This document shows, piece by piece, positions 259-62,303 of a DNA stretch of 64,000 nucleotides. Both the position numbers and the translations under genes were made by a program. The DNA comes from an uncultured Bacteroidales bacterium (GTDB taxonomy: Bacteria; Bacteroidota; Bacteroidia; Bacteroidales; Paludibacteraceae). Under the pieces are notes generated by a model, which saw only the letters and a list, made by a program, of their open reading frames with translations, did no database searches and was not told where the DNA came from. The stretch is taken from assembly GCA_937891905.1 (NCBI GenBank), contig CALATT010000051.1, positions 3,135 through 67,134 of the forward strand, given 5' to 3'. Position 1 is the stretch's first letter, and each line of letters begins with the position of its first letter.

Positions 259-2118
259 ATGAAGCAATTATTGATTAGTTCATTACTACTATGCGCGCTT
301 ACAGTGAGTGCGCAGAATAGCGCCGACACTACACTCAATCGCAATGTGACCGTTGAGCGTGATTTTCAACCTGTGATACAAGCCGCAGGCAAACTATCCA
401 CCAAACCCGAGGTGGTAGAGACCACTGTGGAAGCGGCCAAGGTGGAGTATTCCGATTATACTGCCGATGTGCAACCAGGTGCAGAGTTTAATGCATTGCT
501 ATCCCAACCTACCCGTTTCAGCGCAGGCGAAGCGTATAATGGTTATTTACGCGGTGCGATTGGTCACCCCAATACTTTGTTTGATTTTGAGTACAAACTG
601 GATGATGGCAAGAAGTCCGTTCTCAATGCCTACGCTCATCATGATGGTCAATGGGGATTGAAAGCAGATAGCAAGAGCGCTCTCGGAATGGATTTTACAC
701 ATAAGTTCAGTACATGTAATCTCTATTTCGGTTTAGAAGGAACAAACACCTATCTGCATAAATATGGCCATTTCTACGACTATAACAACATAGGTACTGG
801 TTATAAGAATGGTTACCTGAAGGACTACACCCTCACGGATAAGGATAAAGTGAATCTATGGACAGCGGAGGCGTATGTGGGTGTTAAATCCAACGCTAAG
901 CAAGAAGTGCAATACAAGGTGCAGACGGGTTATCTCGTTTTTGCTATTCCTGGTCAGGTGAATGAGCACCAACTGCGCAGCGAACTATCGTTCGACTGGA
1001 GCAGCGATGCGCACCATGTGGGTGCTGAAGTATATATACAGAATAACTTCCGCCAACTGACTGGTTTGGCATCATTAGTCAACACCTATAATAATATCCA
1101 TAATTTCCGTATTGAACCTTATTATGCGTATAAGAGCAAACGCGTACAACTGCATTTGGGTATTAACTTGGATATGAACCTCGGTCGTGGACAGTATTTA
1201 TCGGGTGTAGAGAACCTCAGTTTTGCTCCATCGCCTCATGTTTATTTGGAGGCACAGATTGCCAAACAATGGTTGACCATCTATGCGGATGCAAAAGGAA
1301 GTCATGGTATTGGTACGCTCCAGTCGCATATGAATAACCCCTTCCGCTTGATGGAGGCGGGTGTTATCTCTGGGCATGTGGCGTCTTACACTCCTATTGA
1401 TGCGGAAGTAGGATTTCATATCCGTCCGTACCGTGATTTAATGATTGAGATACACGGTGGTTATGCCCACATGCTCAATCAAACCACGCTGATTGCTGTG
1501 ACGGATAATACTACCACCTATAGCAGCAGTAAGTTAAATGAATTGATGGCTTTGCATGCAGGTGATTTAAGTTACACCTATAGCGATTATAGTCGTGGCA
1601 AGATAGGTGGTCAAATCAATTACCACTACAAGGATATTATCCGCATCAATCTACATGGAGATTATTATTTCTGGAATGCGCTCAAGCATGAAGATAATTC
1701 GTATAATTATAATCAACATTGCCAAGAACTGCACGATTTATTAGATAATAAACACCATACTGTGTATGATCGTGCTAATTGGGAGATTGGTTTGCGCATT
1801 GACGGCCGTATAGACAAACATTGGTCGCTCTACTCGGATAATTATTTCAGAGGAAGTCGTTTGGCTTTGGCCACGGATGGTGTGCACAAACTCAAACCTA
1901 CGATTGAGATGAACCTTGGTGTGCAATATGAGATGTGGGTTGGCAAGCAAGCGAAGATGGTTAATGAGGACGGAGGCACTACTGTGCGTCCAGAACCTCA
2001 GCCTAATTTAACATTATTCTTCGAACTGAATAATTTCATTCACCGCAAGAATGATATTTATTACGGCTACCAATCGCAGGGTATTAACTTCCGCCTCGGC
2101 GCCATTTATAAATTCTAG
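259..2118 (+). CDS. Putative outer-membrane beta-barrel protein
   Basis: It has the signal peptide MKQLLISSLLLCALTVSAQ. The sequence is rich in Gly, aromatic and Asn residues in an alternating beta-strand pattern. The C-terminus ends ...LGAIYKF, an aromatic terminal residue typical of OMPs. Confidence 0.5.
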   Translation: MKQLLISSLLLCALTVSAQNSADTTLNRNVTVERDFQPVIQAAGKLSTKPEVVETTVEAAKVEYSDYTADVQPGAEFNALLSQPTRFSAGEAYNGYLRGAIGHPNTLFDFEYKLDDGKKSVLNAYAHHDGQWGLKADSKSALGMDFTHKFSTCNLYFGLEGTNTYLHKYGHFYDYNNIGTGYKNGYLKDYTLTDKDKVNLWTAEAYVGVKSNAKQEVQYKVQTGYLVFAIPGQVNEHQLRSELSFDWSSDAHHVGAEVYIQNNFRQLTGLASLVNTYNNIHNFRIEPYYAYKSKRVQLHLGINLDMNLGRGQYLSGVENLSFAPSPHVYLEAQIAKQWLTIYADAKGSHGIGTLQSHMNNPFRLMEAGVISGHVASYTPIDAEVGFHIRPYRDLMIEIHGGYAHMLNQTTLIAVTDNTTTYSSSKLNELMALHAGDLSYTYSDYSRGKIGGQINYHYKDIIRINLHGDYYFWNALKHEDNSYNYNQHCQELHDLLDNKHHTVYDRANWEIGLRIDGRIDKHWSLYSDNYFRGSRLALATDGVHKLKPTIEMNLGVQYEMWVGKQAKMVNEDGGTTVRPEPQPNLTLFFELNNFIHRKNDIYYGYQSQGINFRLGAIYKF

Positions 2119-2262: not shown

Positions 2263-2293
2263 GCTCGTTCGTATTCTACGGTATATTAATCTT

Positions 2294-3556: not shown

Positions 3557-3577
3557 AATGATGAGTTATTTGGACCG

Positions 3578-3585: not shown

Positions 3586-3618
3586 GTAAAAAATCTCCAA
3601 ATATCCAAATATTTTTTG

Positions 3619-3704: not shown

Positions 3705-3723
3705 AACAAACCTCACTGCCACC

Positions 3724-5241
3724 CTACTGTAGTGCCACCTTTAGGCAGTTGCATGATAGGTCTCCGGTGGTTCTTGGTTTGAGATACGCGCGCTCGTATT
3801 CTGTTGCCGCGAGAATGAATGCTCCTAATACTTTACCTTCGGTGTAGTCATTTGATTGTTGGGTATCTTTCTTACCTTTCTCAGCTAAATAGTACGCAGC
3901 AGAACCATCTCGGTCTTCGCTATCTTTATCTGCATTGCTCAAACCTGCTGAGCGACAATTGTGTACAAGTCCATATGCATTACCATCTCCAATGGATTTG
4001 CGCAAGAACTGTTTTAGAAAACCATGATAGCCTTTTTTAGCAGCTTCTTCATACTTTGCCCTATCCAAATATCCAAGGCGCATACCCTTGAGTAATGTAG
4101 ATACGAAGATGGCAGTTGCAGAGGACTCTACATAATTGGTTGTTGAACATCCTTCTGGTTTTACTCCATTGCCATATTGTAATAACTGACACCAGCAACC
4201 TGTAGTTGGGTCTTGGCGTGCCAGTAATCCGTCAGCCACAGCCTCTAATTGGCGTTTCAATTCTGTATAATCCGCATCATTCTTACCTGCCTTATCCATT
4301 TGCTCTAATATATCCACCAATGCAAAGAAATACCATCCTGCTGCGCGTCCCCAGAACTCTTCGCTTACACCATAATGAGAGTTTGTGGCATATGTGCCTT
4401 CTTGGTCTGCCCAGATAGATGTTTGATCGCTTGACGGGTCCGCAGAGAAAGCATGATAGAGTAATTTCTTCTCTTCATCCCATAATCTATTCCAGCACAT
4501 ATCAAACTGCTTACGAATAATCGTCCAATCTCCATCTACGGAACCTGATATATTTTTTCCTTCAGTTAGCATCATGGCAAGCAATGCTGGTCCCATGTAT
4601 TGGCCATCTAACCAAAGTTGGTTCTCATATGTATTTTTATGAAACCACCCGCCTGTGTATGTTTCATTACCGCAAAAGGCTTGCGATGTTGCAGATGATA
4701 TAGAGTAATTGCTATTATGAGCAGCCAAACCAGCCAATGCTTTTGTTTTTGCTGTCGCACAATGATCTGCTACTGTTGCATTCTCAAACTTAGCGCCTGA
4801 TTTAGTTAAATCTGCTAATCCGAAATACATCTTACAAGCATTCAAGTCATCTAATGACTTTCCATCATGATCTTGATTATAATATGCTTCCGCATATGCC
4901 TGAATACTATAAAACCATGGTTTCGCCCAAGTACTATCTTGGTAATAATCAACACATTCTAGTACAGCTTTTGCTACTAATCCAGGAACATAATCAAAAC
5001 CTCTTGTAGACTCGGAATCTGCTTTTTCAGTACCATTTTCATCGTACTTTGCAAATCCTGCATTAGTTGTATTAGCCTTAAAATGATACAAACAACTATT
5101 GATAATTAGTCTTGAGTACTTGGCTGTATCGCAGTTGATTACTTCGTCACTGGTGTAATCTACATCCTGTGCCTTCACAGGCTGGGTGGTGCATGCGGTG
5201 ATAGCCAAGATGGCTAGTAATAAGATGAGTGGATTTTTCAT
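3724..5241 (-). CDS. Glycoside hydrolase family 88/105 lipoprotein (unsaturated glucuronyl/rhamnogalacturonyl hydrolase-like)
   Basis: It has the lipoprotein signal LLAILAITAC. Family-like motifs are WLDGQYMGPALLAMM, LLYHAFSADP..., FWGRAAGWYFFALVDILE (compare WARGNGW) and NYVESSATAIFVSTLLKGMRLGYL. Confidence 0.7.
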   Translation of the reverse strand: MKNPLILLLAILAITACTTQPVKAQDVDYTSDEVINCDTAKYSRLIINSCLYHFKANTTNAGFAKYDENGTEKADSESTRGFDYVPGLVAKAVLECVDYYQDSTWAKPWFYSIQAYAEAYYNQDHDGKSLDDLNACKMYFGLADLTKSGAKFENATVADHCATAKTKALAGLAAHNSNYSISSATSQAFCGNETYTGGWFHKNTYENQLWLDGQYMGPALLAMMLTEGKNISGSVDGDWTIIRKQFDMCWNRLWDEEKKLLYHAFSADPSSDQTSIWADQEGTYATNSHYGVSEEFWGRAAGWYFFALVDILEQMDKAGKNDADYTELKRQLEAVADGLLARQDPTTGCWCQLLQYGNGVKPEGCSTTNYVESSATAIFVSTLLKGMRLGYLDRAKYEEAAKKGYHGFLKQFLRKSIGDGNAYGLVHNCRSAGLSNADKDSEDRDGSAAYYLAEKGKKDTQQSNDYTEGKVLGAFILAATEYERAYLKPRTTGDLSCNCLKVALQ

Positions 5242-5334
5242 TGATTGATTAGTATTTAGTAATTAATTATTCTTTTCTAGATCGGCTAGTTCCCTAATTC
5301 CTGTAGGGCTCTGCCCGTCCTGTATATAGTTGGG

Positions 5335-5763
5335 CTAGATTGTAGCACGCTTCCTTCTTATGAGGCAGAAGGCTGCCGCCATGAGTAGGAGTGGCAGGAT
5401 AGCGTCACCGAGGGGTTGCTGTTCATCTTTGTCCAATGTTCCTGATCCACCACCTGGAGTACCAGGCGCCTTATGTGGGCCACTGACTACCTGCTCTGCC
5501 ATATACGCTCCGGCGCTTACCGAACCATCTGCATTGAGCATAGGTGTGGTGGGATTGGTCCAATCGTCTGTGGCGTAGGCGCTGGTGGAGGTGAATCCGA
5601 TGGTTGGAGCCGCAGCTGCGTCCATGCGCTGATTGACACAAGAGGAACTTGTGTATGGCTTATACTTCACCGCTTGTGCCTGCGTGGTACTGAGTACCAG
5701 CAGACAAGCGATGGATAAGATATATACGATATGTTTCATTGTAGTAATATTGATTGTCTTCAT
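5335..5763 (-). CDS. Small secreted protein with C-terminal TM helix plus basic tail (sorting-signal-like); function unknown
   Basis: Two ATGs are possible, at 5763 and 5739. The second gives the signal peptide MKHIVYILSIACLLVLSTTQAQA. The middle is a low-complexity Pro/Gly/Thr region. The C-terminus is PLGDAILPLLLMAAAFCLIRRKRATI. The gene begins 18 nt after the stop of the giant gene. Confidence 0.5.
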   Translation of the reverse strand: MKTINITTMKHIVYILSIACLLVLSTTQAQAVKYKPYTSSSCVNQRMDAAAAPTIGFTSTSAYATDDWTNPTTPMLNADGSVSAGAYMAEQVVSGPHKAPGTPGGGSGTLDKDEQQPLGDAILPLLLMAAAFCLIRRKRATI

Positions 5764-5781: not shown

Positions 5782-8700
5782 TTATCGTATTACCATTTTA
5801 CCTGTTGCGTCATAGAGTATTCCATTCACAAAGATGAATATCTTATCGTCTTTGATGAATTTCACTGCTTTTGCGTTCTCATCGGTGTTGATATGATCCG
5901 TACCTGTGGCAATCTGCGGTGCTTTGCGTGTAAGGATGAAGCGGTTGTGCTCTGCCTTATCTGCGCAAGTGAAGGTGTATGAATTGCCTTTGAGTACGCG
6001 TGTGTATATTTGCGTATCTGTATCAAGTAAGTAGAGTGCGTCTTCCATACCATCGTAATCGAAGTGTATGGTATATTCGCTATCTTCTCCTGCTCGGAAA
6101 CCGATGACAGTTCCTTCGTACTCTGGTATAGCGCTGACGGCATCATATCGTGTTTCTGCCACCACATAGGACATTGGTGCTGCTGCATTGCCACCCCATT
6201 GCTCTCCATCCCATCCGCTATCATATCCGCGTGTGAAGTCAGGTCTCTCGAGGATGATTAGTCGGTCGTCATAGCGCTTACCACGGAAGAGGAATTTCGC
6301 CACTTGTGGCTCATCATCTGCCGCCACTCTTCTTGCTGGTGCATGCATTGGTCCACTTGGAGTGTTTGTTCTAGGAGCTCTTACATGGCGCTCATAATCG
6401 AGGTGCAATGTACCATCTGTTGTACCACCTACCACATAGAATCCTTGCATTGATGGAATATAACTATCACCCGTATAAGAAGCTGAATGGATTGGAACTG
6501 ACACATAGGTACCTGTAGCGTAGCGACCATTCTCTTTATTGAGTTCTCCGTCTCCCTCTGGGTCGCTACCTGTATTGAAGAAGTAGATTGTTTTTTCAGT
6601 TAATCCTTCCATGTCATCGTCTGTCAACTCATGGATTTGTATAGGAGCTGTCCATGAGTTAGCTACCACCACAAACTTGCCTGCTGGAATAGTAATATCC
6701 TGATTGGTAGTAGCCGCGAGTGTACCCTCCATCCAATAGGTGTGTCCTTGTTCTGGGTGAGTGATACAATAGCCTCTAAATGGCACCAATGGTCCTCCGT
6801 TAGGTATTACTACCCAACCTTCCGCTTCGGTTTCCGTTCCGGTATCGTATTGGTATAACCAACTATCATAGTAGTTATATATTGCATTAGCCACATCGCT
6901 GTGTGGTGTACCTATATACTGCCATGTGGAAGCCGCTTCGCTATAAGTATCAGTATCTGCTTTTGCCTTGCTGTACATTGCTACTCCGGCTTTGGTGTCT
7001 CCTCGTTCATTATTGAGGATGAGTGAGGCATTGCCACCTTCATTAGAACCGAGTGATATATCTGCTACATTTGTAGGATAAACATTTCCGTTCTCGTCGG
7101 CTCGGAGAATGGTGCTTCGTGCTGTAAGTGAACTATTAGCCGGAATAGTAAGGCTACCATCTTTCGTAATATGAATACTGAGTACCTCTGGGAAATATGC
7201 ATCCGCGATTTGCTCTTCTTCGCCTTTTAGGACTTTCGTTTTGACTGCATCCACGGTACATGGTGCTGCGATACGCACATCGTTGTTACGACCTGGTACC
7301 ACCATGTATTCTGGTCCCCAGTTAGCGGCTGTAGACCACAAACCGTCGCCTTTTGTACCAGTACCTTCGTAAGCAGATTCATCCCAGTTGGTATTTCCTT
7401 CTCCATTATCGAATGTTAGACGGCAGTCTGCCACCTCTATCAGGTCTGTTTTTAAGAGGTAATCGAGACATGTGAGTAATACTTGGCGTCCCATTGGTGT
7501 TTGCATACTCTGTGCACCGCAGTTGATAGCGAATAGAATCATTCTGGCTTCAATATTCGCTTGTCGCTCTGCGATAGCTACTAATTGTCTATCGTCCGCA
7601 GCTGGAGTCCACTCAAGGTGAGCATGTGTATCATCTCCATCTGTATGAGTAACCACTTCTGCTGCGGCATTATAGTGTATTAATCCGATGGTAACAAAGT
7701 TATCCGCATCTTTGAGTTCAAATCCCTGCAAACCTTTACTACTTTCATGTCCAGGTCCCGTCAGTATCTGGTATACAAGTTGGTTGAAGTCATCGTGGTC
7801 ATGATAGATACCTTCCACATGTGCATCATCTAGTTCATCAAACATTGGGTGAGCATAGCATACGATATTTGCGTATTGGCTTGTTGCTGCGGGGACTACA
7901 GGTGAAGTAGTGAATCCTTTTGCTGCCCATTTGGATGGTGTTTTAGCTACCATATGCGCTTTGAGTGAGAGTAGTGGTCTATAATCGCACAGAGCAGCCA
8001 TATCGTCCAGAATTGTAGCCGCAGCTTCGCTCTTTGATGCTTTTGGATAGTCAGTGAGCAAGAGGATGTCGAATGGTTCGTAGTTGAGTTTATTGAACTC
8101 TGCATATCCATTTACAGGTGTTACAATATACTTCTCCTTCAATTCAGTATAGAATCCCCATTCTGTATTTGGGTCAAAGGTAGTGTTACCTGTTTGCTGG
8201 CAGAGGTCCGCTTTGTTATATCCCGTGAGGAAGTCGCCACCAACCACTAATTCTTTGGTAGCGCGTGTACCTTCTCCATTTGCTCCCGAGCAGATGAGCG
8301 CGAGTGTAGGTTTGTCACCGATAACATGGATAGTGATAGAAGCGGTAATTGCGCTTGCATTGTTACAACTATTGATAGGTGCGCAAGTGATTACTATCTC
8401 ATCGCCTTCTGCATACTTGTCTTTTAATTCATTCAAGTTAATCATCACTGTATCCACCGCATTGTCGCTACTTGGTATAGTGAAGAATGCATTTGAAGAA
8501 GAGAGGTTGAGTGTTGTTTCACCATTTTTTGTAGCGGTGAGGTGATAGCGTTTACCATCCAATATACCATATGATTTGACAGCGAAGAGGTGTCTATCTT
8601 TCATTTGATTAGAATAGGTCTTATCTACATGGTAGTATTGGAATGGTGTCAATCTCTCCACTTCAGGTTCCACATTTTCGTTTGTCACAATAGCGGAGTT

Positions 8701-11700
8701 GGTACTCATTGTTATACACGCGTCCGTGCGCGAAACAGTATAGGTACCCGCGCGCACGACTGCATAACTTGCGCTATTTGCGCCATCTATTGCTTCTCCG
8801 TCACGGTACCATTGATAAGAGCCACCTGTGAAGTCTGTAGTGCCATCTTGCATTTTTGCCTCTAAGGTGATAGAGTTGTTACATCCGTTTAAGTTCGTAC
8901 CTGCCGCTGCTACAATTTTTGGAGCTTGATCTTTACATCCGACTGTAATGGTATAACTACCTTGGCATGCGCAGTATTCTGTTTCACTGATTTCTCCACC
9001 TGCGAAAGTAGCTGTGATGGTTACTGTACCTGTCATTCCTTCGAATGTCACATTACCATCTTCATCTACTGTAGCGATAGCAGTATTAGAAGAAGTGTAG
9101 GTGAGTGTTTGTCCCTCTAATGTAGTCTCACCTGATTTGAGTGTGAAGGTAGGTTCTACAAAATCCGCGTGTGTACTAATGTTATACTCATTATTGTAGG
9201 AACCTACTGTGAGTGTTGTCTCTGTACAAGCATTCTTGTATGTGAAGCAGGCTTCTGCGAGATAGAATTTACCTGTACCGGCACCTTTTCCATCCATATT
9301 GCGTCCTATACGGAAGGCATTAACATCTGCATCTGCTGGCAATTCGATTGTTATCGTTTTGTAGGCGGTAGGCACGGCAGAAGATGTTTCCTTATAGGTC
9401 CATGTTGTACCTCCGTTTGTAGAATAGCCATACACAGCCTTAGAGTTATTAGTGTGTGCTACAGTTACTTTGGCAGTAGCAAAGTATCTGCCTGTAGGAG
9501 CCGTGTATGTGAGGTATTCTTTACTACCATTTGATTCCCATGCTGATCTTGATTCGTATGTTTCTGAGGAACAACTTGTATTTGTAAATCTAAATTCATG
9601 GTCGCCTTCATTTCCCTTTGTAGCACATTCTTCTGAGATGAATGGTGTGACGGTGACTGTAATTGGATTAGAAGTAACTGATCCGCATGAGTTAGATGCT
9701 ACGCAGAAGAGGTAGAATATTTGGTCTGCTGCTTCTGTGATAGAAGCCGCAGCAAGCAATAAGTCTTTGGATGTACCTACTTTCGTATCTTCTGCTGCGT
9801 CAAAGGAATTATCTGAACTCTTATACCATGCATATCCTGTTGCATTAGTTGCTTGCACATCGCTTATTGCCAATGCGTTACCTTTCATTACGGACGCTGT
9901 GGTAGCAAAGGTATTGAATGTAGGTGCAGTTAATACGGTAAGTGTTACTTCTTCTGAGATACGCTTACATCCGGCTTCGGCAATAACGCGGTATTGACCT
10001 GCATGCTCTGTAGTCACAGAAGAGATAGTATAGGTATCAGAAGAAGTAGCTCCGTTGATGTCCTCCCAAGTATTACCATCCTTTTTCTGCCATAGGAATT
10101 CAGCTCCGTTAGCATAGTTGGTGGCTGTGAAGGTGACATTTTCTGTACCTTCACAGACAGTAGCATTATCCACAGTAGCGATTACTTGTGGGTCGGTGCA
10201 ATTAACATCCGAACATATCTCTATCGATAATTCTGTTAGGTAGAATGCATCCGTTGCACATACATAATATGTGCCTGCAGACAATTCAGCCGATGCTGTA
10301 TTCAATTCATTCGTAGTACTAGGCTTAATATATGCATAAGTGGTTACGAGAGAACCAGTAGGACTGTTGGATATAAACACACTACGATCTGTACTAATGA
10401 TATATCCAGCCATGAAGAGACTACCTACATACCCAGAAGGTATCTCAAACTGAATGTATCTGCTATCTGCTTTTGTTGTTCCTCCAACAAACTTCCATCC
10501 TTTCTTGTATGTTTTGTCATTATAGGTATAAGTACAAGGATTTGAACTAGTTGCCGTTCCTACATTTGCCCATGAAGCGCCAGTATTTGCCTCTGTTCCT
10601 GTGGCATCTACGGCAGGTATTGTTTGATCGTTAGAACTATCAAAGATAATCATATCATAACAACCTGCGCTTGGTGTCTTGACTACTAATTCATATACTT
10701 TCTCAGCAGTGCCGCAAGAGTTAGTGCCGTCGCCTTCTACTATTACCTTATAATAATAGGTACCTGCCTTGTCTGGGGTGAGCGCGAGCGTGGCATTTTC
10801 TTCGTCGTTGATGATTTGCGCGGTAGTGCCTTCTGCATCATTACATGTATACCATTGATAAGTTACTCCGCTGGATGCGCAAGAAGCGGTTAGTGTTACG
10901 CTATTGCCTGCAAAGATAGTGGATGCACTAGCTGTGATAGCAGGTGTAGCAGTTGCCGGGGTGACGGTGAGTGTCACTTCTTTGGTTGCTGTTGCACTGG
11001 CTTTTCCTTCAGCAGAGACTGTTGCTGTCACTACATATGTACCGCCTGCCGCCTCTGTGATATCATTCAATGTGAGGGTAGCGCTGTTTGAAAGAACGGT
11101 GTTATTACCCTTCTTGTTCCATTGGTATGCAATTGTTTCGCCGTCTTGTAAGGTTGCGGTGTTATTTGCTGTCCATGAAACATTGTTGCCTGGGCACACT
11201 TTTGGGTTCTCTAAATCAGATAGTACAGGTGTGGTGCAAGAAGGGAGAGAAGTAATATCTATTACTATTATTCCATAAAAATCGCCGCTACCGCTAATAC
11301 TTATATCTCCTGTGAAACTACCATTTTTAACAAACTCATGAGCAAAGAAAGTATTTTTATTCGAAGATGATGTATATTCGACTCCTCCAATAGTAAGTTT
11401 TCTCGAAGAACTTCCACACCAACCATAGAATCTAATGGATGTTGCAGTTTTACTTCCTAATTTAAGCGTATAGGTAGTAGCGTCCTTAAACTTCATTCCT
11501 TGTATATAACGATTAGCCGTAGAGGAAGAACCCCAATTAGACGATTTGCTTAATTCTTCGTGTGTTAAATTGTTTGAGTTATAGTATATACCTGCTGCTG
11601 ACGGTGTAGAAGATATCGACAATGCTGTTGAATTCTCCACAACTCCACCAGTAACTGTGAAGAACTGAATCATACCATTGGTTATTCCCTTTACTAAAGC

Positions 11701-14700
11701 TCCATTTTGGATTGCCACTTGACCATAATAGTATTTCTCTTCTCCTGTGCCTGGATTTGGTTCAACGCTTGCGGCGGTAACGGTGAAATCATTAGAGTTT
11801 TGTGTAATTTCGTTTCCACATGCATCAGTTGCGGAAGCAACCAGATGCGTAGTTCCCGCAGCCACATAATGCAGTTTACCGTCAACGATAGTAGCTATTG
11901 AAGGATCAGCAGATGTAACTGTAACAGCTGAGCCATCAGAGCAAGAAACGGCGTATGCGAAATCTGCGCTACCCACTTGTCCATTCGCTGGTTGCGTATT
12001 CCAAGTGATTGTTGCCGCAGGAGCAGTGCTACAATCAACAGAACATAAGTCGCCCACAATCGTTATAGGACTCTTGATGCGGAAAGATTGATAATTACCT
12101 CCTTTCTTAACTGCATTGAGTCGTAAGGTGACTGTTCCGCTCAAGGATGCATTATTAGGTATCGTATACGCGATATCTGCATTGGCTCCGTCAGCATTAT
12201 TAGGATAGACCTCACCTTCAATGGTGGTTGTAGCATCTGACAATGTACCAACAAATTGATAGTAATGGGTGTCTCCACTTCCGCCGACACCATAGCACAT
12301 CAGATTGGTGTTGATAGCAGTTGGTTTGAATACATATCCACTTGGTACATCGAAGGTGAATGTGACGCCATCGCTGACATTATCATTTGTCGCAGAAGCT
12401 CCATAACGCTCTGAATAATCTGCAAATGATGAATTTGGGTCACCGGTATTAGATTCAGCTGCACCTATTGCTGTCGCACCAGTTAAACTGGTTATCGTTC
12501 CAGAAGGAGAAACCGATTGCGAAGCTGTTTTGTTGTTATGTGTTACTAAATTATAAGTAATGGTAGTTTCTGTACATTCCTCTGGCTCTGGGTCTGGTGT
12601 GACAGGAGTGTTCTCTGTCCATTGCGCATATAGGGTGATGTTAGCAGAGAGTGTAGCACCGGCTATAGCAGCAGTAGTCAATTCTGAATCGGTATACCAT
12701 CCGCCAAATTCGTAACCCGTTTTGGTTGGGATTGGTAATGGGTTTGGTAATGCTGTTTGTTCTGTTGCATTGCTTGGGCATCCACTCGTTGCACCATTAC
12801 ATTCGTAGGTTACGGTATAAGTAGAAGGAGTAGAAGGAGCAGGGGTGTAACAGATTGTACTAATAACCATTGCGTTTGATAATTCAACCCAAATATAAGT
12901 ATTGGCTGGTATTGCCTCGCTAAAGTTAATCTTAAACTCTTGACATCCCTTTGTTGGACCTATTTTTGTATCGCCTACTAATGCTGCATTAGAATATGAA
13001 TCTTTGTCTGCTGTTGTGCTCGTTTTTACAGATTTTATTGTTCTCTCGGATGAACTATATCCAGAGAAATGGATTGAAGTAATTGGAACATTGACTTTCA
13101 CCAAAAACCTTTGATTTTCAAACGCATACACTTTCGAACCACTACAATCTGTTTTCCCCGTACCCCAACGACTTGTTGAATTTAGACGACCATCACTATC
13201 TGTCGCATACATAGCGAAGTCACCTTTCGTATAGCTACTTACACTTGAACTTCCTTCAAAAGTAACACAGACCTCATCACTTGGTTCGGGTTCTACAGCA
13301 TTTGCTGTCCATTGCGCATACAAGGTGATATCTGCAGAAGGAGCATAAGAATCACCTGCTACGCCCACTAAGGTGCCACCTGTAGCGGCTGTGTACCAAC
13401 CATTGAAAGTATAACCATCACGGGTTGGGGTTGGCAATGCAACTGAGGATGCATTCTCGCTGGTTGTAGAGCAAGAACCACCATTCGCATCATAAGTAAC
13501 CGTATAAGTTGGTATTACAACTTCCGTCTTAAAGGTATAACATATTTGTGAAACCTTAGGTGTTGTACCACTCTTGATGATTTGAATGGTAGAGGCATTC
13601 GTACCAGCAGGAATAGCAATTGTGTATGTTTTCTCTGCTTTGGTGCTTGACGCTAATGTTTGTTGCGAACCTCCATTGATTTTATAGTAATTATTCTTAC
13701 CATCACTTCCGCATGTGGCTGTGAAAGTAAAGGTCTCGAAATAGCGACCTGCAGGAGCAGTAAACAACATATTACTACCTACAGAAAGACCATTTGCATC
13801 CGCTGTGCAGTTATCACCCAACGCAACTTGCGTGCCATCCGCTAAAGTGGTGCTACTACCCAAAGTGGTACTATTCACTACGAAGCAACCCTCTCCTAAT
13901 TCTTGCCATTGTGCAGTAAAGGTGGTGTTTGTAGCAGTCACCGTGTACGCATCGCCTGCTTTATACACATTATCATCTCCATCACAGAGCCATCCAACAA
14001 AGATACTATTCGCCTTAGAAGCAGGCGCTGCCAAAACAATGGTTGTTCCCTCTGTCACTGCTTCTTGTGTTGGCGTTGCACTATCCGCACCATCGGTATC
14101 GTAAGTAATGGTATAGGTAGCCGCATTAACTACTATAGCGCCCGATAGTGCTGTGGTGTAAACAACAGGGCAACCCGTCTCTGTTACTACGCAATAGTAA
14201 TACCATGTATCGTGTGCCTCAGCGGTAGAAGGAGTATAAGTACTTTCCGTTGCACCATCAATCAGTTCGCCATGGGCTATATCCGAAGTTGTTTTATACC
14301 ATTGATAAGTGAGTGCTCCGCCATTGCTTGCCGTCACACCAGTGATAGACATACTTGCTGCGGATGCATTTTGCATGTATGTATTACCTGGAGCGGTAAA
14401 GGTAGAGCCCGTACCATTAGCACCACTACATGCAGCTATTGTGACCTCAACTTGCTTATTGAGGATGTTATAACCTGTAGCAGACTCCCAAATACCTGTA
14501 TTCGCAAAACGCACTGCGTACTTAGGATTATTTGCAATAGACGCAGATGCATCTGGCAAATAGAGATATAAATCATAGGTGCCAGCAGCCATTGTAGCAG
14601 GAAGAGTGATATACTCATTGATGGCAGTAGTAGCATTATTTGGTGCCCAAGTGCGTGGGTCTGAAGATAATGGTATAGAATATGTATTCGTACTATTCTT

Positions 14701-17700
14701 CAATACTATGTAAGCATAGCGCTCATTGTATAAAGGTGCATAACCCACATTCTTGATATTGAGTTGCACATTCATTGGGGTGCCTGCCGTTGCCTCGTTA
14801 GGTAAGGTTGCGCTTTCTAATTCAAAGCGATAGCCTAACTGTTTGGACATGCGAGCATATGAACCCTCTGCTTTCCACTGATTAGTGACATATTGACTAT
14901 AACTATGATTCAAATAGCTATAGTGCAATTGTGCCATTTCTTTTTCTGCAATTGAGCCTTTACACCAAGTATCATAAGTAGATGACTCTCCATCATCTAA
15001 GTTGGTCTCACCACCAATTGGCACATACAAACACTCTTGTGCGATATATTTCATATCCTCGGTACGGTCCTCATATGTACCCTGGTTCTTCTCACCATTC
15101 AAGAATGCGTCATTATGGTGACCCAGACGCGCTTGATCTGAACCATGATAAGCTACTGCAGAAGTGAGTGGATTATTATTGCCCAAGTATTTTTTCTTAA
15201 ACAATGGTGTACGCAATTGCACATAGCGATTAGCAGGAACTGCATCTAATAATTGGTCAATCAAGTTCTGTCTAACCGACCACTCTACTTCATCTCCTGT
15301 GCCGAGTGACGAATAATACCATTCACCCCACACACCCAAGAAGCCTGCTTGCACCACATAGATAACATCAGCGTTCGCTTGCAAATAAGGTTTAAGTTGT
15401 GCTAAGTGCGTCTCCCAAGTAGCAGGCGAAGCGTCTTCGAAATCATTATAATCCTCATCACCATCTTCATCGGTATCCTTATCGTATGCAAAACGCAAGA
15501 TACACTTCATGCCGTTGGTACGGATTTTCTGCATATCATTATTGAACATCGTGATGAAGCCATTAGGTAATTGTTTATTCTGGCGCAGTTCGTCTGTATC
15601 TAAATAATAGATACGCAAGAGAAGTGAACGGTTTGCTGCTCGTGCATCATCAAAATAGCTATCCCAAAGGTTATCATCATAGTCACCCGTTGAAGCATGA
15701 GACCACTCTGCATGCTCATAGAATCCACGCTCTGGGTTCGGGAAGTCGGTCTCGTCAATTGGATATGCCGCACCACCTGTGGCACTAACAGTCAATGTAT
15801 AAGTTACGGTAGCTGCGCAATAATCATCCTGAGCCGCCGCAGAAGCTGTGATGATAGTAGAACCAGAGCCCTTAATCGTCACTTCGCCATTTGAAGCTAT
15901 CGTAGCCACTTTGGTATTGCTACTGCTATATGCCACAGCCAAACCATGTGGATTGGTCAAGGTATTTGTGAATGACGCATCTTGATCTGTCTTCGCAATA
16001 GAAGTGGTAGAATAAGCCAATTCAGGGTTAGAGCATGACGAACCACCACAATTAGAGACTGTAATAGACTTGAGGAAACTATTGTTAGAACGATGTATCT
16101 GGAATGTTGATGTACCTTCTAGGCCATCACCTGCTGTCACTATATACGAAGCAGAGAAATCGCCTACTCCATCTTGAGTGTATGTTCCTACCACATCGCC
16201 AGTACCATCTGCCAACTTCAATCCTCGTTCACCCGTAGTACCATTGTACATATTGAGTGTAATAACAGTACCTACTTGCATCTCTGTCAGCAATGTAACG
16301 CTTACTTTAGAAGAACCGCTAGACTTAAATGCCAATCCATTGGATGAGTACTCTATGGTACCATCAATCATTGTCATCGTACCGCCTACACCTGCTCCTA
16401 AGATTACATCACCAGCAGCAGGAGCTGTTCCAGAGGTAGCCAATATAAACTCATAGCAGTTATTACTCTCTTCCCACTTTGCATAAAGAGTCTTCGCCGA
16501 AGTAACAGGAGTATTGAAATTATATTCACTGGTGCATGCTTGATCGCTGTACCAGCCCACAAAGACATATCCTGCACTCACTGGCGTTGATGGCGCAGAA
16601 GCCTTAGCACCGCTCACTACCTCTTGCGTGAAAGAGTCACCATGACCATTCAAATTAAAGGTTACCGTCAAGGCTTGCACCCATTTAGCATAAAGAGTAG
16701 TATTTGCAGTAATAGGCGTTGAGAAATCAAATGCAGAGGTACATGCTTGGTTTGTGTACCAACCATCAAACACAAATCCGGTAGTAGTAGGATTGGCTGG
16801 AGCAGCGATTGTACGATTCTCATATACATCTTGTGTGAAGTTAGTGCCCTTACCATTCAGATTGAAGGTAACTACAAATTTATTCAAAGTAGCACCGCAA
16901 GTTTGAATCGTTCCGTCTGTTTCGACAATCAAAGTAGCTCCCGCACCGCAGTCAGGGTCTGTGACATTCGCAACCGCATCCGAAGCAGACTCTATAAAAT
17001 AGCGATAACTGGGCTTATTAACCGTACCCTGATCAGAAGGCAAATTACCTACGCTATTAACAAACTTACATGCGTTTGTACCTCCATAAGACTTAAATAT
17101 CTTATCTTTTGAATTGGCTTTTCCCGCAAAAGTACAGCCCTCGAAATAGCATTTCGCATTCTCAGGGCCCACATAATAATTGGCTACATCGGAATTCCAA
17201 TAGCAATTAAAGAAATGAATCTCGCAGTTACGACAACGAACCATACGCTCTTTACAACCATTATCCCACCAGTTATGCGCATAAGTCACATTATATGTAC
17301 CATCGGCTGGTTTATCATCTTCACTCGAACCTAATAAATTGGTATAACGGTGGTCTGCCGCGCCACCTGAACCACCAGACTTAGCTGGCTTCAAATAGCG
17401 GAAACGACACCAAGTAACGGTAATATTATCCGCGTTAGACTTAATATCAAAGTTACCATCACAACCATCTTGGAAATCACAGTGGTCCACCCACGCATTC
17501 GTAGCGTCCTCAAATTGCAATAGATCCTTACCATTGCAGTCATATGCACCAGGACCTATAAATGTAACATTACGAATGATAATATTACTTCCCCGCATAT
17601 TAAGAATACCTGATTGCTCTTTGCTCTGGCCATTGGAGATAAGACATCTACCAGGCAAAGCCAATAGCGTAATATTACTTCCCCTAGAGGTGAACTGAGT

Positions 17701-17916
17701 AGAAACTGTGATATTGGCTGTAATAATCACCACTCGGTTAGATTTGCTTCCACTGAGTGCATCAATAAGTTCCTGCTCGGTATCCACCGAGATAGGCGTA
17801 GCATTACCGCCACCTGTAGCATTACTACCATAGCCAAAGAGATCATACATGCCTTGCGCAGAAAGAGAAGCAAAGCCCATCAAAGACATTAAGACTACGA
17901 GAAAAAGTTTTTTCAT
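5782..17916 (-). CDS. Giant (4,044 aa) T9SS-secreted multi-domain pectinolytic protein
   Basis: A single uninterrupted ORF begins with the signal peptide MKKLFLVVLMSLMGFASLSAQ. It contains an N-terminal PL1 pectate lyase, Listeria-Bacteroides repeats, Big_2 domains, a DUF4874/DUF4832-like region and repeated Ig-like 'YQWY' domains. The C-terminus ...KFIKDDKIFIFVNGILYDATGKMVIR resembles a T9SS CTD. Confidence 0.9.
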   Translation of the reverse strand: MKKLFLVVLMSLMGFASLSAQGMYDLFGYGSNATGGGNATPISVDTEQELIDALSGSKSNRVVIITANITVSTQFTSRGSNITLLALPGRCLISNGQSKEQSGILNMRGSNIIIRNVTFIGPGAYDCNGKDLLQFEDATNAWVDHCDFQDGCDGNFDIKSNADNITVTWCRFRYLKPAKSGGSGGAADHRYTNLLGSSEDDKPADGTYNVTYAHNWWDNGCKERMVRCRNCEIHFFNCYWNSDVANYYVGPENAKCYFEGCTFAGKANSKDKIFKSYGGTNACKFVNSVGNLPSDQGTVNKPSYRYFIESASDAVANVTDPDCGAGATLIVETDGTIQTCGATLNKFVVTFNLNGKGTNFTQDVYENRTIAAPANPTTTGFVFDGWYTNQACTSAFDFSTPITANTTLYAKWVQALTVTFNLNGHGDSFTQEVVSGAKASAPSTPVSAGYVFVGWYSDQACTSEYNFNTPVTSAKTLYAKWEESNNCYEFILATSGTAPAAGDVILGAGVGGTMTMIDGTIEYSSNGLAFKSSGSSKVSVTLLTEMQVGTVITLNMYNGTTGERGLKLADGTGDVVGTYTQDGVGDFSASYIVTAGDGLEGTSTFQIHRSNNSFLKSITVSNCGGSSCSNPELAYSTTSIAKTDQDASFTNTLTNPHGLAVAYSSSNTKVATIASNGEVTIKGSGSTIITASAAAQDDYCAATVTYTLTVSATGGAAYPIDETDFPNPERGFYEHAEWSHASTGDYDDNLWDSYFDDARAANRSLLLRIYYLDTDELRQNKQLPNGFITMFNNDMQKIRTNGMKCILRFAYDKDTDEDGDEDYNDFEDASPATWETHLAQLKPYLQANADVIYVVQAGFLGVWGEWYYSSLGTGDEVEWSVRQNLIDQLLDAVPANRYVQLRTPLFKKKYLGNNNPLTSAVAYHGSDQARLGHHNDAFLNGEKNQGTYEDRTEDMKYIAQECLYVPIGGETNLDDGESSTYDTWCKGSIAEKEMAQLHYSYLNHSYSQYVTNQWKAEGSYARMSKQLGYRFELESATLPNEATAGTPMNVQLNIKNVGYAPLYNERYAYIVLKNSTNTYSIPLSSDPRTWAPNNATTAINEYITLPATMAAGTYDLYLYLPDASASIANNPKYAVRFANTGIWESATGYNILNKQVEVTIAACSGANGTGSTFTAPGNTYMQNASAASMSITGVTASNGGALTYQWYKTTSDIAHGELIDGATESTYTPSTAEAHDTWYYYCVVTETGCPVVYTTALSGAIVVNAATYTITYDTDGADSATPTQEAVTEGTTIVLAAPASKANSIFVGWLCDGDDNVYKAGDAYTVTATNTTFTAQWQELGEGCFVVNSTTLGSSTTLADGTQVALGDNCTADANGLSVGSNMLFTAPAGRYFETFTFTATCGSDGKNNYYKINGGSQQTLASSTKAEKTYTIAIPAGTNASTIQIIKSGTTPKVSQICYTFKTEVVIPTYTVTYDANGGSCSTTSENASSVALPTPTRDGYTFNGWYTAATGGTLVGVAGDSYAPSADITLYAQWTANAVEPEPSDEVCVTFEGSSSVSSYTKGDFAMYATDSDGRLNSTSRWGTGKTDCSGSKVYAFENQRFLVKVNVPITSIHFSGYSSSERTIKSVKTSTTADKDSYSNAALVGDTKIGPTKGCQEFKINFSEAIPANTYIWVELSNAMVISTICYTPAPSTPSTYTVTYECNGATSGCPSNATEQTALPNPLPIPTKTGYEFGGWYTDSELTTAAIAGATLSANITLYAQWTENTPVTPDPEPEECTETTITYNLVTHNNKTASQSVSPSGTITSLTGATAIGAAESNTGDPNSSFADYSERYGASATNDNVSDGVTFTFDVPSGYVFKPTAINTNLMCYGVGGSGDTHYYQFVGTLSDATTTIEGEVYPNNADGANADIAYTIPNNASLSGTVTLRLNAVKKGGNYQSFRIKSPITIVGDLCSVDCSTAPAATITWNTQPANGQVGSADFAYAVSCSDGSAVTVTSADPSIATIVDGKLHYVAAGTTHLVASATDACGNEITQNSNDFTVTAASVEPNPGTGEEKYYYGQVAIQNGALVKGITNGMIQFFTVTGGVVENSTALSISSTPSAAGIYYNSNNLTHEELSKSSNWGSSSTANRYIQGMKFKDATTYTLKLGSKTATSIRFYGWCGSSSRKLTIGGVEYTSSSNKNTFFAHEFVKNGSFTGDISISGSGDFYGIIVIDITSLPSCTTPVLSDLENPKVCPGNNVSWTANNTATLQDGETIAYQWNKKGNNTVLSNSATLTLNDITEAAGGTYVVTATVSAEGKASATATKEVTLTVTPATATPAITASASTIFAGNSVTLTASCASSGVTYQWYTCNDAEGTTAQIINDEENATLALTPDKAGTYYYKVIVEGDGTNSCGTAEKVYELVVKTPSAGCYDMIIFDSSNDQTIPAVDATGTEANTGASWANVGTATSSNPCTYTYNDKTYKKGWKFVGGTTKADSRYIQFEIPSGYVGSLFMAGYIISTDRSVFISNSPTGSLVTTYAYIKPSTTNELNTASAELSAGTYYVCATDAFYLTELSIEICSDVNCTDPQVIATVDNATVCEGTENVTFTATNYANGAEFLWQKKDGNTWEDINGATSSDTYTISSVTTEHAGQYRVIAEAGCKRISEEVTLTVLTAPTFNTFATTASVMKGNALAISDVQATNATGYAWYKSSDNSFDAAEDTKVGTSKDLLLAAASITEAADQIFYLFCVASNSCGSVTSNPITVTVTPFISEECATKGNEGDHEFRFTNTSCSSETYESRSAWESNGSKEYLTYTAPTGRYFATAKVTVAHTNNSKAVYGYSTNGGTTWTYKETSSAVPTAYKTITIELPADADVNAFRIGRNMDGKGAGTGKFYLAEACFTYKNACTETTLTVGSYNNEYNISTHADFVEPTFTLKSGETTLEGQTLTYTSSNTAIATVDEDGNVTFEGMTGTVTITATFAGGEISETEYCACQGSYTITVGCKDQAPKIVAAAGTNLNGCNNSITLEAKMQDGTTDFTGGSYQWYRDGEAIDGANSASYAVVRAGTYTVSRTDACITMSTNSAIVTNENVEPEVERLTPFQYYHVDKTYSNQMKDRHLFAVKSYGILDGKRYHLTATKNGETTLNLSSSNAFFTIPSSDNAVDTVMINLNELKDKYAEGDEIVITCAPINSCNNASAITASITIHVIGDKPTLALICSGANGEGTRATKELVVGGDFLTGYNKADLCQQTGNTTFDPNTEWGFYTELKEKYIVTPVNGYAEFNKLNYEPFDILLLTDYPKASKSEAAATILDDMAALCDYRPLLSLKAHMVAKTPSKWAAKGFTTSPVVPAATSQYANIVCYAHPMFDELDDAHVEGIYHDHDDFNQLVYQILTGPGHESSKGLQGFELKDADNFVTIGLIHYNAAAEVVTHTDGDDTHAHLEWTPAADDRQLVAIAERQANIEARMILFAINCGAQSMQTPMGRQVLLTCLDYLLKTDLIEVADCRLTFDNGEGNTNWDESAYEGTGTKGDGLWSTAANWGPEYMVVPGRNNDVRIAAPCTVDAVKTKVLKGEEEQIADAYFPEVLSIHITKDGSLTIPANSSLTARSTILRADENGNVYPTNVADISLGSNEGGNASLILNNERGDTKAGVAMYSKAKADTDTYSEAASTWQYIGTPHSDVANAIYNYYDSWLYQYDTGTETEAEGWVVIPNGGPLVPFRGYCITHPEQGHTYWMEGTLAATTNQDITIPAGKFVVVANSWTAPIQIHELTDDDMEGLTEKTIYFFNTGSDPEGDGELNKENGRYATGTYVSVPIHSASYTGDSYIPSMQGFYVVGGTTDGTLHLDYERHVRAPRTNTPSGPMHAPARRVAADDEPQVAKFLFRGKRYDDRLIILERPDFTRGYDSGWDGEQWGGNAAAPMSYVVAETRYDAVSAIPEYEGTVIGFRAGEDSEYTIHFDYDGMEDALYLLDTDTQIYTRVLKGNSYTFTCADKAEHNRFILTRKAPQIATGTDHINTDENAKAVKFIKDDKIFIFVNGILYDATGKMVIR
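5785..6009 (-). other. T9SS C-terminal sorting domain of the giant protein
   Basis: The last ~75 aa end AVKFIKDDKIFIFVNGILYDATGKMVIR. This aligns with the C-terminus of the CE8 protein (KVIKDGKLFIMRDGKVYDAMGSMIR). Confidence 0.7.
14437..15765 (-). other. DUF4874/DUF4832-like putative glycoside-hydrolase TIM-barrel plus beta-sandwich (aa ~718-1160)
   Basis: Motifs seen are NPERGFYEH, LLLRIYYLD, CILRFAY, QAGFLGVWGEWYYS, LGHHNDAFL and VPIGGETN. They are followed by GYRFELESATLP...NVQLNIKNVGYAPLYN. Confidence 0.55.
16474..16881 (-). other. Two Listeria-Bacteroides (Flg_new-type) repeats (aa ~346-481)
   Basis: The two repeats read VTFNLNG(K/H)G...G(F/Y)VF(D/V)GWY(T/S)(N/D)QACTS...TLYAKW. More copies of this repeat occur further along the protein. 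Confidence 0.75.
16912..17853 (-). other. PL1 pectate lyase catalytic domain (aa ~22-335 of the giant protein)
   Basis: Motifs seen are NAWVDHCDFQDGCDGNFDIK, ADHRYTNLLG and CKERMVRCRNCEIHFFNCYW. The last corresponds to the PL1 R-x-P-x-x-R ... H-x-x-NN pattern in a parallel beta-helix context. Confidence 0.75.
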
Positions 17917-30253: not shown

Positions 30254-30378
30254 GCAAATTTATTCAGGCCACACAAATAAATATACAAAAATTATGCTAA
30301 AAGGGGTTTAAAATATGCAAAAAACAAAAAAAATAAAGAAAAATTATACTGCCTCTTGCGAGAGTCAAAAAAAATTTA

Positions 30379-30386
30379 TACCTTTG
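30379..30386 (+). promoter_or_regulatory. -7 box TAccTTTG for the pectinesterase gene
   Basis: The sequence ttaTACCTTTGcgc lies 46 nt upstream of the ATG at 30432. This argues against the longer ORF start at 30315. Confidence 0.5.
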
Positions 30387-30431
30387 CGCCATAATGTGTT
30401 TATCTTTTACTCACCCAAAATTTTAGTATTT

Positions 30432-35427: not shown

Positions 35428-35449
35428 ATTACACATTATTCTTGCCCAC

Positions 35450-55727: not shown

Positions 55728-55742
55728 AGTGATTGATTGTAT

Positions 55743-56108: not shown

Positions 56109-56109
56109 C

Positions 56110-56990: not shown

Positions 56991-56992
56991 AT

Positions 56993-57922: not shown

Positions 57923-57932
57923 ATTTTTTCTA

Positions 57933-61819: not shown

Positions 61820-61823
61820 TCTA

Positions 61824-62297: not shown

Positions 62298-62303
62298 TTT
62301 TTA

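Follow-up and report, generated by a model that had tools for sequence, protein, structure and literature searches.

The 64,000-nucleotide stretch of contig CALATT010000051.1 analysed here (the window), from an uncultured Paludibacteraceae bacterium of the order Bacteroidales, carries on its minus strand a single open reading frame (ORF) for a giant protein of 4,044 amino acids. The reading that we favour, with moderate confidence, is that this protein is a modular, pectin-degrading cell-surface protein that is exported by a type IX secretion system (T9SS) and consists of an enzyme head, a spacer and a conserved chassis. The head (residues 22-1164) would combine a calcium-dependent PL1 pectate lyase with a glycosidase-like TIM barrel of the DUF4874/DUF4832 type, the spacer (to about residue 2216) would be formed by Flg_new repeats, by domains of the immunoglobulin (Ig)-like and Big_2 types and by divergent beta modules with bracketing cysteines, and the chassis (about 2216-4044) by Ig domains, further modules, Ig-like and alpha/beta domains and a beta-rich region related to the fimbrial protein Mfa5. 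The ORF and its enzymes are ordinary in kind; noteworthy are the Mfa5-related chassis family, the C-terminal tail containing motif B only, which alternates with T9SS C-terminal domains (CTDs), and the cassette mosaicism.

The ORF occupies positions 5782..17916 (12,135 nt; 4,044 codons plus stop) with neither N nor internal stop, in agreement with the single uninterrupted 12.1-kb gene proposed in a preliminary description of this sequence; all coordinates given for its parts refer to the same minus strand. A TAACTTTG motif located about 70 nt 5' of the ATG fits the Bacteroidetes promoter element, the consensus of which we take to be TAnnTTTG. The N-terminus, MKKLFLVVLMSLMGFASLSAQ, resembles a signal peptide without a lipobox cysteine, and we read residues 1-21 (17854..17916) as a predicted Sec signal peptide. 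Pfam was run on the whole giant protein and on 16 sub-segments, and internal repeats were sought by BLAST with tiled queries. By both approaches the domain order given in the preliminary description was essentially right, including the PL1 domain at the N-terminus and the presence of two putative catalytic units on one chain, the lyase with its aspartate triad and arginine motif and a glycoside hydrolase (GH)-like TIM barrel. Two plus at least three Flg_new repeats, at least six Ig-like 'YQWY' domains and about seven unassigned modules had been proposed; the respective numbers found were five, six with a (Y/F)(Q/L/A)W motif, and seven without any Pfam match. As to the Big_2 domains, three Big_2-like copies were found, only one of them above the Pfam cut-off.

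The PL1 unit comprises residues 22-340 (16897..17853) as judged from Pfam, alignments to PDB entries and homologs. Pectate_lyase_4 (PF00544) matches residues 95-249, the isolated segment reaching 55 bits against a cut-off of 24 (E 1e-14), and among the pectate lyases in the PDB the head matched 3ZSC (6e-14), 7XKS (9e-12) and also 5GT5. The calcium-binding aspartates D131, D153 and D157 are located within the motifs KD-LL, CDG and FDI and presumably correspond to D184, D223 and D227 of Bacillus subtilis Pel (BsPel). The arginine motif R224-M-V-R227-C-R229 aligns to RMPRIR of 3ZSC, and the WVDH motif is also kept; the catalytic arginine and the calcium-binding aspartates, the loss of which had been considered in the preliminary description, are all present on alignment. 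The head belongs to a clade of 1,360 homologs at E<=1e-10, nearly all of which are secreted proteins of 385-550 aa with about 60% identity, and the PL1 motifs are conserved across these homologs. We regard the head as a putative calcium-dependent pectate lyase with intact aspartate triad and arginine motif.

The second unit of the head, residues 724-1164 (14425..15747), was delineated by Pfam, homologs, structure prediction and Foldseek. DUF4874 (PF16173) covers residues 727-904 (E 1e-36, 126 bits) and DUF4832 (PF16116) residues 930-1139 (E 8e-61, 206 bits), and the closest homologs of residues 485-1470 align to the DUF4874/4832 part only, at 45-59% identity. An AlphaFold model built from 40 sequences, with a predicted local distance difference test score (pLDDT) above 90, displays an eight-stranded (beta/alpha)8 barrel followed by a C-terminal beta-sandwich. 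Its Foldseek neighbours are enzymes of clan GH-A at about 10% identity, namely the GH5 mannanase 6TN6 (E 3.5e-7), GH39 PslG and GH157, with RBcel1 and Cel5A at a target template modelling (TM) score of about 0.5; no PDB relative was found by sequence or profile search. Invariant in the family are E865 just past beta-4, H933-H934-N935-D936 at the end of beta-6 and E970 at the end of beta-7, a position which we take to be that of the nucleophile in clan GH-A. Based on this model, the unit is a probable retaining glycosidase. Its closest relatives are often fusions of about 950 aa with Glyco_hydro_88, as confirmed for P0088 (985 aa), and others carry Flg_new or CBM35; among P0084-P0118, Glyco_hydro_88 (GH88/GH105) is joined directly to DUF4874-DUF4832 in many Paludibacteraceae-type proteins. 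As a Rosetta-stone link, the fusion to GH88/GH105 argues for a role on pectin or unsaturated uronides, and together with the locus it suggests that the substrate of DUF4874/4832 is pectin-associated. A DUF4874-DUF4832-dockerin protein is present in a Ruminococcus cellulosome proteome (PMC7480376).

Smaller domains lie between and behind the two enzyme units. The Flg_new (Listeria-Bacteroides) repeats 1 and 2 at residues 344-415 and 413-484 (together 344-484; 16465..16887), repeat 3 at 1266-1339 (13900..14121) and repeat 5 at 1695-1768 (12613..12834) were identified by Pfam and internal BLAST, and repeat 4 at 1470-1536 coincides with a 226-nt cassette (13287..13512) that recurs in other gene contexts. 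The six Ig-like domains have their (Y/F)(Q/L/A)W motif at residues 1204, 2264, 2353, 2607, 2695 and 3034. In addition to the motif, domain 1 (1165-1265; 14122..14424) gave weak Pfam Ig matches, whereas Ig_2, Ig_3, PKD-like and Ig_7 matches extend across domains 2 and 3 (2233-2405; 10702..11220), about where the chassis begins according to the collinear homologs, and domains 4 and 5 (2570-2760; 9637..10209). Domain 6 (3000-3088; 8653..8919) was recognized by the Pfam segment scan and its motif. Family profiles of the 'YQWY' domains (~2233-2405, 2570-2760 and 3000-3088) also match Ig-like domains of phage proteins in the PDB, 9NCF_S ('Immunoglobulin-like domain protein') and 9C2D_S ('tail protein'), with E 1e-21 to 1e-27. 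The Big_2 domain at residues 2910-2995 (8932..9189) barely exceeds the Pfam cut-off at 2936-2970. A Big_2-like Ig domain at 630-712 (15781..16029) emerged from the segment scan and from internal BLAST, which linked the copy at 654-710 with 2.6e-8, and a further one at 1960-2045 (11782..12039) was recognized in the sequence and is conserved in the related contig L002.

The seven unassigned modules, A (residues 485-628; 16033..16464), B (1340-1467; 13516..13899), C (1545-1694; 12835..13284), D (1782-1958; 12043..12573), E (2052-2232; 11221..11763), F (2408-2568; 10213..10695) and G (2762-2908; 9193..9633), are 130-180 aa in length, and most of them have a cysteine at start and end. Scans of the isolated segments yielded no Pfam match for any of them, a module profile matched nothing in the PDB, and the AlphaFold2 models, calculated without alignment depth, had pLDDT values below 50, that of module A being all-beta at low confidence. 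Local phmmer and jackhmmer searches joined only modules B and G and a module of small PL1 enzymes. Our assignment of the cysteine-bracketed beta modules as carbohydrate-binding is a guess. In the small PL1 enzymes (P0199-P0317), one of two modules of about 135-145 aa, type X or type Y, is placed between lyase and tail. Type X (...SAGTGTRISQVCFEL) is related to modules B and G, and type Y (WNISDDDF...INIYGI) stands in place of module E in the L002 ortholog (L002 5685-6113); no Pfam or PDB relatives were found for either type.

The C-terminal base of the giant protein had been described as a region of about 770 aa of unknown function. No Pfam family covers residues 3089-3996, nor this C-terminal region in any of its family members (31/31), but the region is not an orphan, as it displays homology to Mfa5. 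A search with residues 3085-4044 yielded 31 homologs, and the AlphaFold model on that alignment (mean pLDDT 80.6) comprises an Ig-like beta-sandwich at 3089-3200 (8317..8652), which has no Pfam match, a conserved alpha/beta domain at 3205-3495 (7432..8304), a run of short strands followed by beta-rich domains and, at the end, a three-stranded element. Residues of the alpha/beta domain that are invariant in the family include N, Y, D, C-x-x-H, QGF and ERQ. Foldseek against the PDB returned no convincing fold for this model, the best match of the alpha/beta domain being ThuA-like 1T0B at E 9e-3, and the Ig, lipin-HAD and ThuA-like matches were dismissed as noise. A family profile of the region matched Porphyromonas gingivalis Mfa5 (6TO1_A, chain residues 649-1027) with E 7e-39, and BLASTP aligned residues 3576-3899 to Mfa5 chain residues 699-1027 over 355 columns at 25% identity (47 bits, pairwise E 4e-10), identifying the beta-rich region at about 3500-3996 (5929..7419) as homologous to the C-terminal half of Mfa5. 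The motifs W..NW, WQY.G.P, F.GY.IT, NS.T..I, FNTG and IPSM..F are common to both proteins, and the shared region directly precedes the CTD of Mfa5 (PMC7835359). A single-sequence phmmer search with residues 3560-4044 against the PDB gave nothing. Judged from these comparisons, the link between the two proteins is real but remote. The crystallised Mfa5 construct comprised residues 21-1044, of which only 99-664 were ordered (PMC7835359); Foldseek missed Mfa5 because the homologous half has no coordinates in the crystal model. Mfa5 is a confirmed T9SS substrate and fimbrial tip adhesin (PMC7835359). In the giant protein no vWA domain was matched by Pfam, the alpha/beta domain does not fit vWA folds and the neighbouring genes are not fimbrial; an identity as Mfa5 ortholog was rejected for want of a vWA domain and an mfa operon.

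With residues 3200-4044 as query, HMMER identified among 1.84 billion representatives a chassis family of 1,441 proteins (clusters) at E<=1e-3, 619 of them at E<=1e-30; the counts of domains, lengths and tails given for this family cover the best 143 of 1,441. The best matches are 3,217-4,303 aa long and one weaker match reaches 5,984 aa. As 50/143 representatives have at least 3,000 aa (and 6/143 at least 4,000 aa), the size of the giant protein is typical of its family, and the earlier view that it is at the extreme of size holds against characterised carbohydrate-active enzymes (CAZymes) but not within the family. Similarity to the closest relatives is collinear from about residue 2040-2240 to the end, by which the chassis amounts to about the last 1,800 residues (~2216-4044, ~45% of the chain), while the N-terminal 1,500-2,500 residues vary. 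In 13 chassis giants, Pfam at E<=1e-5 detected only Flg_new, Ig, Big and fn3 domains. An N-terminal PL1 like that of the giant protein is present in 7/143 representatives and DUF4874/4832 in 0/143; the unusual feature of the giant protein in its family is the double enzyme head, not its size. P0323 (4,303 aa) has a PL1 head 70% identical, a base 64% identical and a tail differing in one residue, and P0426 (3,712 aa) has a PL1 head and a terminal sequence that was judged to be a type A CTD of the long kind.

The chain ends in ...APQIATGTDHINTDENAKAVKFIKDDKIFIFVNGILYDATGKMVIR, within a 40-aa C-terminal tail (GTDHINTDENAKAVKFIKDDKIFIFVNGILYDATGKMVIR; 5785..5904) whose CTD-like features are limited to a cleavage motif and motif B. 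By MAFFT, a long-CTD hidden Markov model (HMM) and hhalign, the tail aligns to the first half of long type A CTDs, in register both at motif B, YDAxG(K/R), and at the T|G(I/V)xx(I/V) motif upstream of it. The agreement in motif B (Y-D/N-x-x-G-R/K; LYDATGK in the tail versus iYDaaGR) is weak (HMM E 0.02, hhalign P 6e-4), and the tail ends 7 residues past this motif, whereas long CTDs extend about 40 residues further, across motifs D and E. AlphaFold2 predicts three short strands in the tail. At the corresponding position, the more distant homologs P0062, P0070 and P0072 match TIGR04183, as does the protein of the related contig L004. The short tail also ends the CE8 pectinesterase encoded in the window, at least 75/120 PL1 homologs, at least 33/120 DUF4874/4832 homologs and at least 110/143 chassis representatives, compared to about 16 of the latter with long CTDs. 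Its presence on the CE8 enzyme as well as on the giant protein suggests an export tag common to the pectin enzymes of this genome. The canonical CTDs of the homologs imply that the Paludibacteraceae lineage has a T9SS, and the homologs make it likely that the giant protein is exported by this route; its tail may be a further-reduced T9SS signal, or something else.

The locus clearly belongs to pectin and galacturonate catabolism, and the link to pectin made in the preliminary description is borne out by the neighbouring genes, which exact sequence matches assign to metagenome-assembled genomes of Paludibacteraceae. On the same strand 3' of the giant gene lie a 142-aa ORF (5335..5763) after a gap of 18 nt, a GH88/GH105-like unsaturated uronyl hydrolase (3724..5241), assigned by Pfam and with cluster members named rhamnogalacturonyl hydrolase YesR, and an AAA_14 ATPase. 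Located 5' are an NlpC/P60 gene, an L-aspartate-oxidase-like gene, a ComF-like gene, the altronate dehydratase UxaA and a UxaB-like reductase of the mannitol-dehydrogenase family. On the plus strand, the CE8 pectinesterase (30315..33242; 975 aa), with a weak Flg_new repeat and the short tail ...KVIKDGKLFIMRDGKVYDAMGSMIR, is followed by a regulator of the hybrid two-component system (HTCS) type (35381..39028), the two being assigned by Pfam. No SusC/SusD families were found among the window ORFs scanned against Pfam, and membership in a Sus-type polysaccharide utilization locus (PUL) was rejected on this ground.

In the product of the 142-aa ORF, a signal peptide and a low-complexity stretch precede a transmembrane helix near the C-terminus, after which comes RRKR. 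Small ORFs also follow the giant genes of the related contigs L001 (9014-9466) and L002 (11823-12242), where they are syntenic, and of L004 (18802-19458), where an analogue is found. Their layout consists of Gly/Pro/Thr low complexity, P-x-G-D/K, a hydrophobic helix and a C-terminal RRKR or RKK, and similarity to JDVT-CTERM was sub-threshold (18 bits). By its sequence, the small product could be a dedicated membrane-anchored partner or the carrier of a C-terminal sorting signal of its own. A 619-aa ORF (259..2118, plus strand) with a signal peptide and the C-terminus ...FRLGAIYKF has the look of an outer-membrane beta-barrel and no Pfam or NCBIfam match; a 600-aa family-less ORF occupies the same convergent position in L001 (13232-15034, minus strand). 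At 52000..64000 of the window, the GC skew is -0.24 to -0.33 and the large ORFs are all on the minus strand.

Independent assemblies cover parts of the giant gene. Contig L004 (JAXJUN010000029.1, Paludibacteraceae DOME_MAG_5269) follows the window with 94.3% identity from 26876 to 13287, beyond which the two sequences are unrelated. Its ORF encodes 3,282 aa, the first 1,548 of which are 93% identical to the giant protein, and contains PL1, DUF4874/4832, six Flg_new repeats and fn3, a C-terminal base 30% identical to that of the giant protein and a CTD with 27.7 bits for TIGR04183 (cut-off 23). L004 and the window diverge exactly at the edge of the 226-nt unit of Flg_new repeat 4 (13287-13512), which recurs twice in L004 (13361-13586 and 14378-14603) and once in L011 (704-929) at 94-97% identity, with sharp edges and other flanks. 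This recurrence suggests that the unit was recently duplicated, copied by gene conversion or exchanged as a cassette from one giant gene to another; it is also a short-read assembly hazard. L001 and L002 contain chassis orthologs with identities of 46-79%, behind which lie the small ORF and GH88, and no enzyme domain was detected in their N-terminal parts, which differ from that of the giant protein. The idea that the L002 gene is a pseudogene was dropped as the apparent frameshifts are scaffold N-gaps. Contig L003 (ERZ1767635, 2.4x coverage) is about 99% identical over residues 1-485 and the genes upstream and departs right after Flg_new repeat 2, in its last 386 nt (4918-5303), into unrelated SLH-like sequence (FDDLDVTLWYHLDVDYVLENGLM). 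The end of L003 is probably a cross-organism chimera at an Flg_new motif, and a reading of P0198/L003 as a short 580-aa allele was rejected due to this unrelated sequence at the end of a contig with low coverage.

A misassembly of the repeats had been a concern of the preliminary description. A repeat collapse is unlikely because the internal repeats are at most 50% identical in protein by tiled BLAST, tandem repeats and long DNA repeats were not found inside the gene, and its sole direct DNA repeat is a 34-nt motif. The risk is of another kind, an in-frame chimeric or recombinant join at the 226-nt cassette. By such a join, a PL1-DUF4874/4832 gene resembling that of L004 might have been artefactually fused to an enzyme-less chassis gene resembling that of L002, a scenario that we consider rather unlikely but serious. 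The reading frame would be kept because the join falls inside a conserved repeat, and the cassette, present with other flanks in L004 and L011, exceeds common assembler k-mers. The point at which identity to L004 ceases would then be the join itself, and on its far side the C-terminus of the giant protein, the 142-aa ORF, GH88 and AAA_14 match L002 at 84-97%, the N-terminus of L002 being PL1-less. In addition, the giant protein is a singleton cluster found on one contig of 70,128 bp, L003 demonstrates that contigs may turn chimeric at an Flg_new boundary, and no contig across the 13287 edge was found in the JGI/ENA metagenome contigs, so that this contig is the only one to display continuity at about 13287. 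Contrary to an artefact, PL1-headed proteins with the same chassis exist independently (P0323 and six more), residues 1544-1731 of the window protein have no match in L004 or L002, which makes a simple two-parent join insufficient, and the gene is free of exact repeats of at least 25 nt. The many mosaic relatives and the independent PL1-plus-chassis proteins rather support a cassette-mediated shuffling of heads and chassis. Even with a chimeric window, the main conclusion would survive by way of L004, as a protein of more than 3,000 aa with PL1, DUF4874/4832, an Mfa5-like region and a CTD exists there.

Together with the dependence on a single contig at 13287, several observations speak against a T9SS-exported pectin-degrading protein. 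In the PL1 head, the conserved lysine five residues before the LxGSS glycine, presumably K247 of BsPel, is replaced by Y190. No relation of the unassigned modules to any known carbohydrate-binding module was detectable, and a profile of close relatives only gave no Mfa5 match at E 1e-3. Neither TIGR04183/PF18962 nor NF033708 matched the whole giant protein or its isolated tail, even at E<=10, so that the T9SS CTD of the preliminary description could not be upheld in this form; motifs D (GxY) and E (terminal basic strand) are absent from the tail alignment, and the 64-kb window contains no T9SS component genes. Finally, the only characterised DUF4832 relative found, SIR_1591 of Streptococcus intermedius, acts on Pel and not on pectin (PMC12345266). 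The replaced lysine would fit a protein that is mainly an adhesin, an Mfa5-related fibrillar protein whose PL1-like and TIM-barrel heads serve chiefly to attach to glycans of plant cell walls and catalyse little or nothing, and so would the facts that most family members have Ig, Flg_new, Big and fn3 domains only and that Mfa5 is itself a fimbrial tip adhesin (PMC7835359). We hold this to be improbable, as the aspartate triad and RxxRxR are intact, the invariant glutamate pair in the TIM barrel argues for catalysis and the downstream GH105-like enzyme needs lyase products. The preceding R189 may compensate for the missing lysine, and the resulting HR(Y/F) variant is common to every close homolog examined, including small stand-alone PL1 enzymes that look like ordinary secreted lyases; being shared by the close homologs of a large secreted clade, we read it as a feature of the clade and not a sign of decay. 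The missing CTD match, the lack of motifs D and E and the absence of T9SS genes from the window would likewise suit a tail that sorts or anchors the protein in another way or simply forms a structural beta-hairpin; the protein would then reach the surface by a different route or remain periplasmic. This, too, appears to have little probability, since in close homologs true type A CTDs take the place of the tail at one alignment position and share with it the upstream T|G(I/V)xx(I/V) motif. Moreover, the giant protein is not a lipoprotein, and we know of no other Bacteroidota route that exports non-lipoproteins of several thousand residues.

According to the favoured reading of a T9SS-exported, pectin-degrading surface protein, Sec export would be followed by type IX translocation across the outer membrane, for which the 40-aa tail, in our reading a shortened type A CTD, would be the signal, with probable cleavage near AT|GT and retention at the surface via the conserved base. 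The head would be held far from the cell and cut homogalacturonan by beta-elimination, the CE8 enzyme with the same tail would demethylate pectin, and the GH105-like enzyme and UxaA/UxaB would use the unsaturated products, while the DUF4874/4832 unit might attack another pectin-associated glycan. The head would have been grafted onto the chassis through recombination at near-identical Flg_new cassettes. More tentatively, and as a conjecture that we would not yet lean on, the Mfa5-related chassis might be a general display platform of Paludibacteraceae and their relatives, with enzyme or binding heads swapped at Flg_new cassettes, and the motif-B-only tail a new minimal signal for outer-membrane export and attachment used by most secreted CAZymes of this lineage, beyond the short CTDs, which are known only from Prevotella intermedia. 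Provided that the gene is real and its product exported, an abundant uncultured gut and rumen lineage would present pectin enzymes at the tip of a very long surface fibre, in place of a Sus-type PUL or a cellulosome. A C-terminal module that over 1,400 protein clusters have in common, and for which Pfam has no family, would gain a handle in the unsolved half of a fimbrial protein of a periodontal pathogen, the alternation of canonical CTDs and 40-aa tails in one family would provide a natural experiment on the minimal T9SS signal, and the GH88/GH105 fusions supply a testable candidate substrate class for DUF4874/DUF4832.

Compared to known systems, the PL1 head shares with Thermotoga maritima PelA (3ZSC) and Bacillus Pel (1BN8) the beta-helix family signature, the three calcium-binding aspartates and RxxRxR. 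It differs in being only about 25-30% identical to them and in the change of lysine to tyrosine with an adjacent arginine (HRY), and while its closest relatives are the proteins of 385-550 aa, the lyase is here fused to a giant chain. SIR_1591 likewise consists of a TIM barrel and then a DUF4832 beta domain and has a demonstrated glycosidase-type polysaccharide activity, dispersing Pel-dependent aggregates (PMC12345266); its substrate is the exopolysaccharide Pel, whereas the clade of the giant protein is tied to GH88/GH105 and PL1, suggesting a substrate related to pectin. With Mfa5 (6TO1; PMC7835359), another large surface protein, the giant protein has in common the homologous region before the C-terminal signal, but it lacks the vWA domain with its metal ion-dependent adhesion site (MIDAS), the CnaA-like isopeptide domain and the mfa operon context.

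In P. intermedia, short CTDs comprise 40-51 aa, form a three-stranded sheet and are functional, being cleaved and glycosylated like long ones, and this species was stated to be the only one known to have both short and long CTDs (PMC11969387). The tail of the giant protein resembles them in its length of about 40 aa from the putative cleavage site, its predicted three-stranded sheet, its PT/GI-like cleavage motif and its coexistence with long CTDs, in this case within one protein family. However, motifs D and E have been described as the part on which secretion strictly depends, and B, D and E are all kept in the short CTDs of that species (PMC11969387), whereas the present tail stops after motif B.

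The comparison with a cellulosome, implied when the protein was described as a 'cellulosome-like pectin machine', does not hold, as no cohesin or dockerin family appeared in any Pfam scan of the giant protein, the chain has one enzyme of known specificity and about 45% of it is conserved chassis; a cellulosome identity was rejected. Closer counterparts are the multimodular CAZymes that rumen Bacteroidetes secrete by the T9SS; their ORFs reach about 1,900 aa and their CTDs are canonical (PMC5831590). Like those of 'Candidatus Paraporphyromonas polyenzymogenes' (PMC5831590) and like Flavobacterium johnsoniae ChiA, the giant protein would be a secreted non-PUL protein with more than one catalytic module per chain, interspersed 'hyp.' modules and a C-terminal export signal, with no SusC/SusD pair nearby (for the giant gene, in the window). 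These enzymes are at most about 1,900 aa long and have a TIGR04183 CTD, whereas the giant protein combines 4,044 aa with a 40-aa CTD remnant, devotes about 45% of its chain to a non-catalytic chassis and would be directed at pectin rather than at cellulose or chitin.

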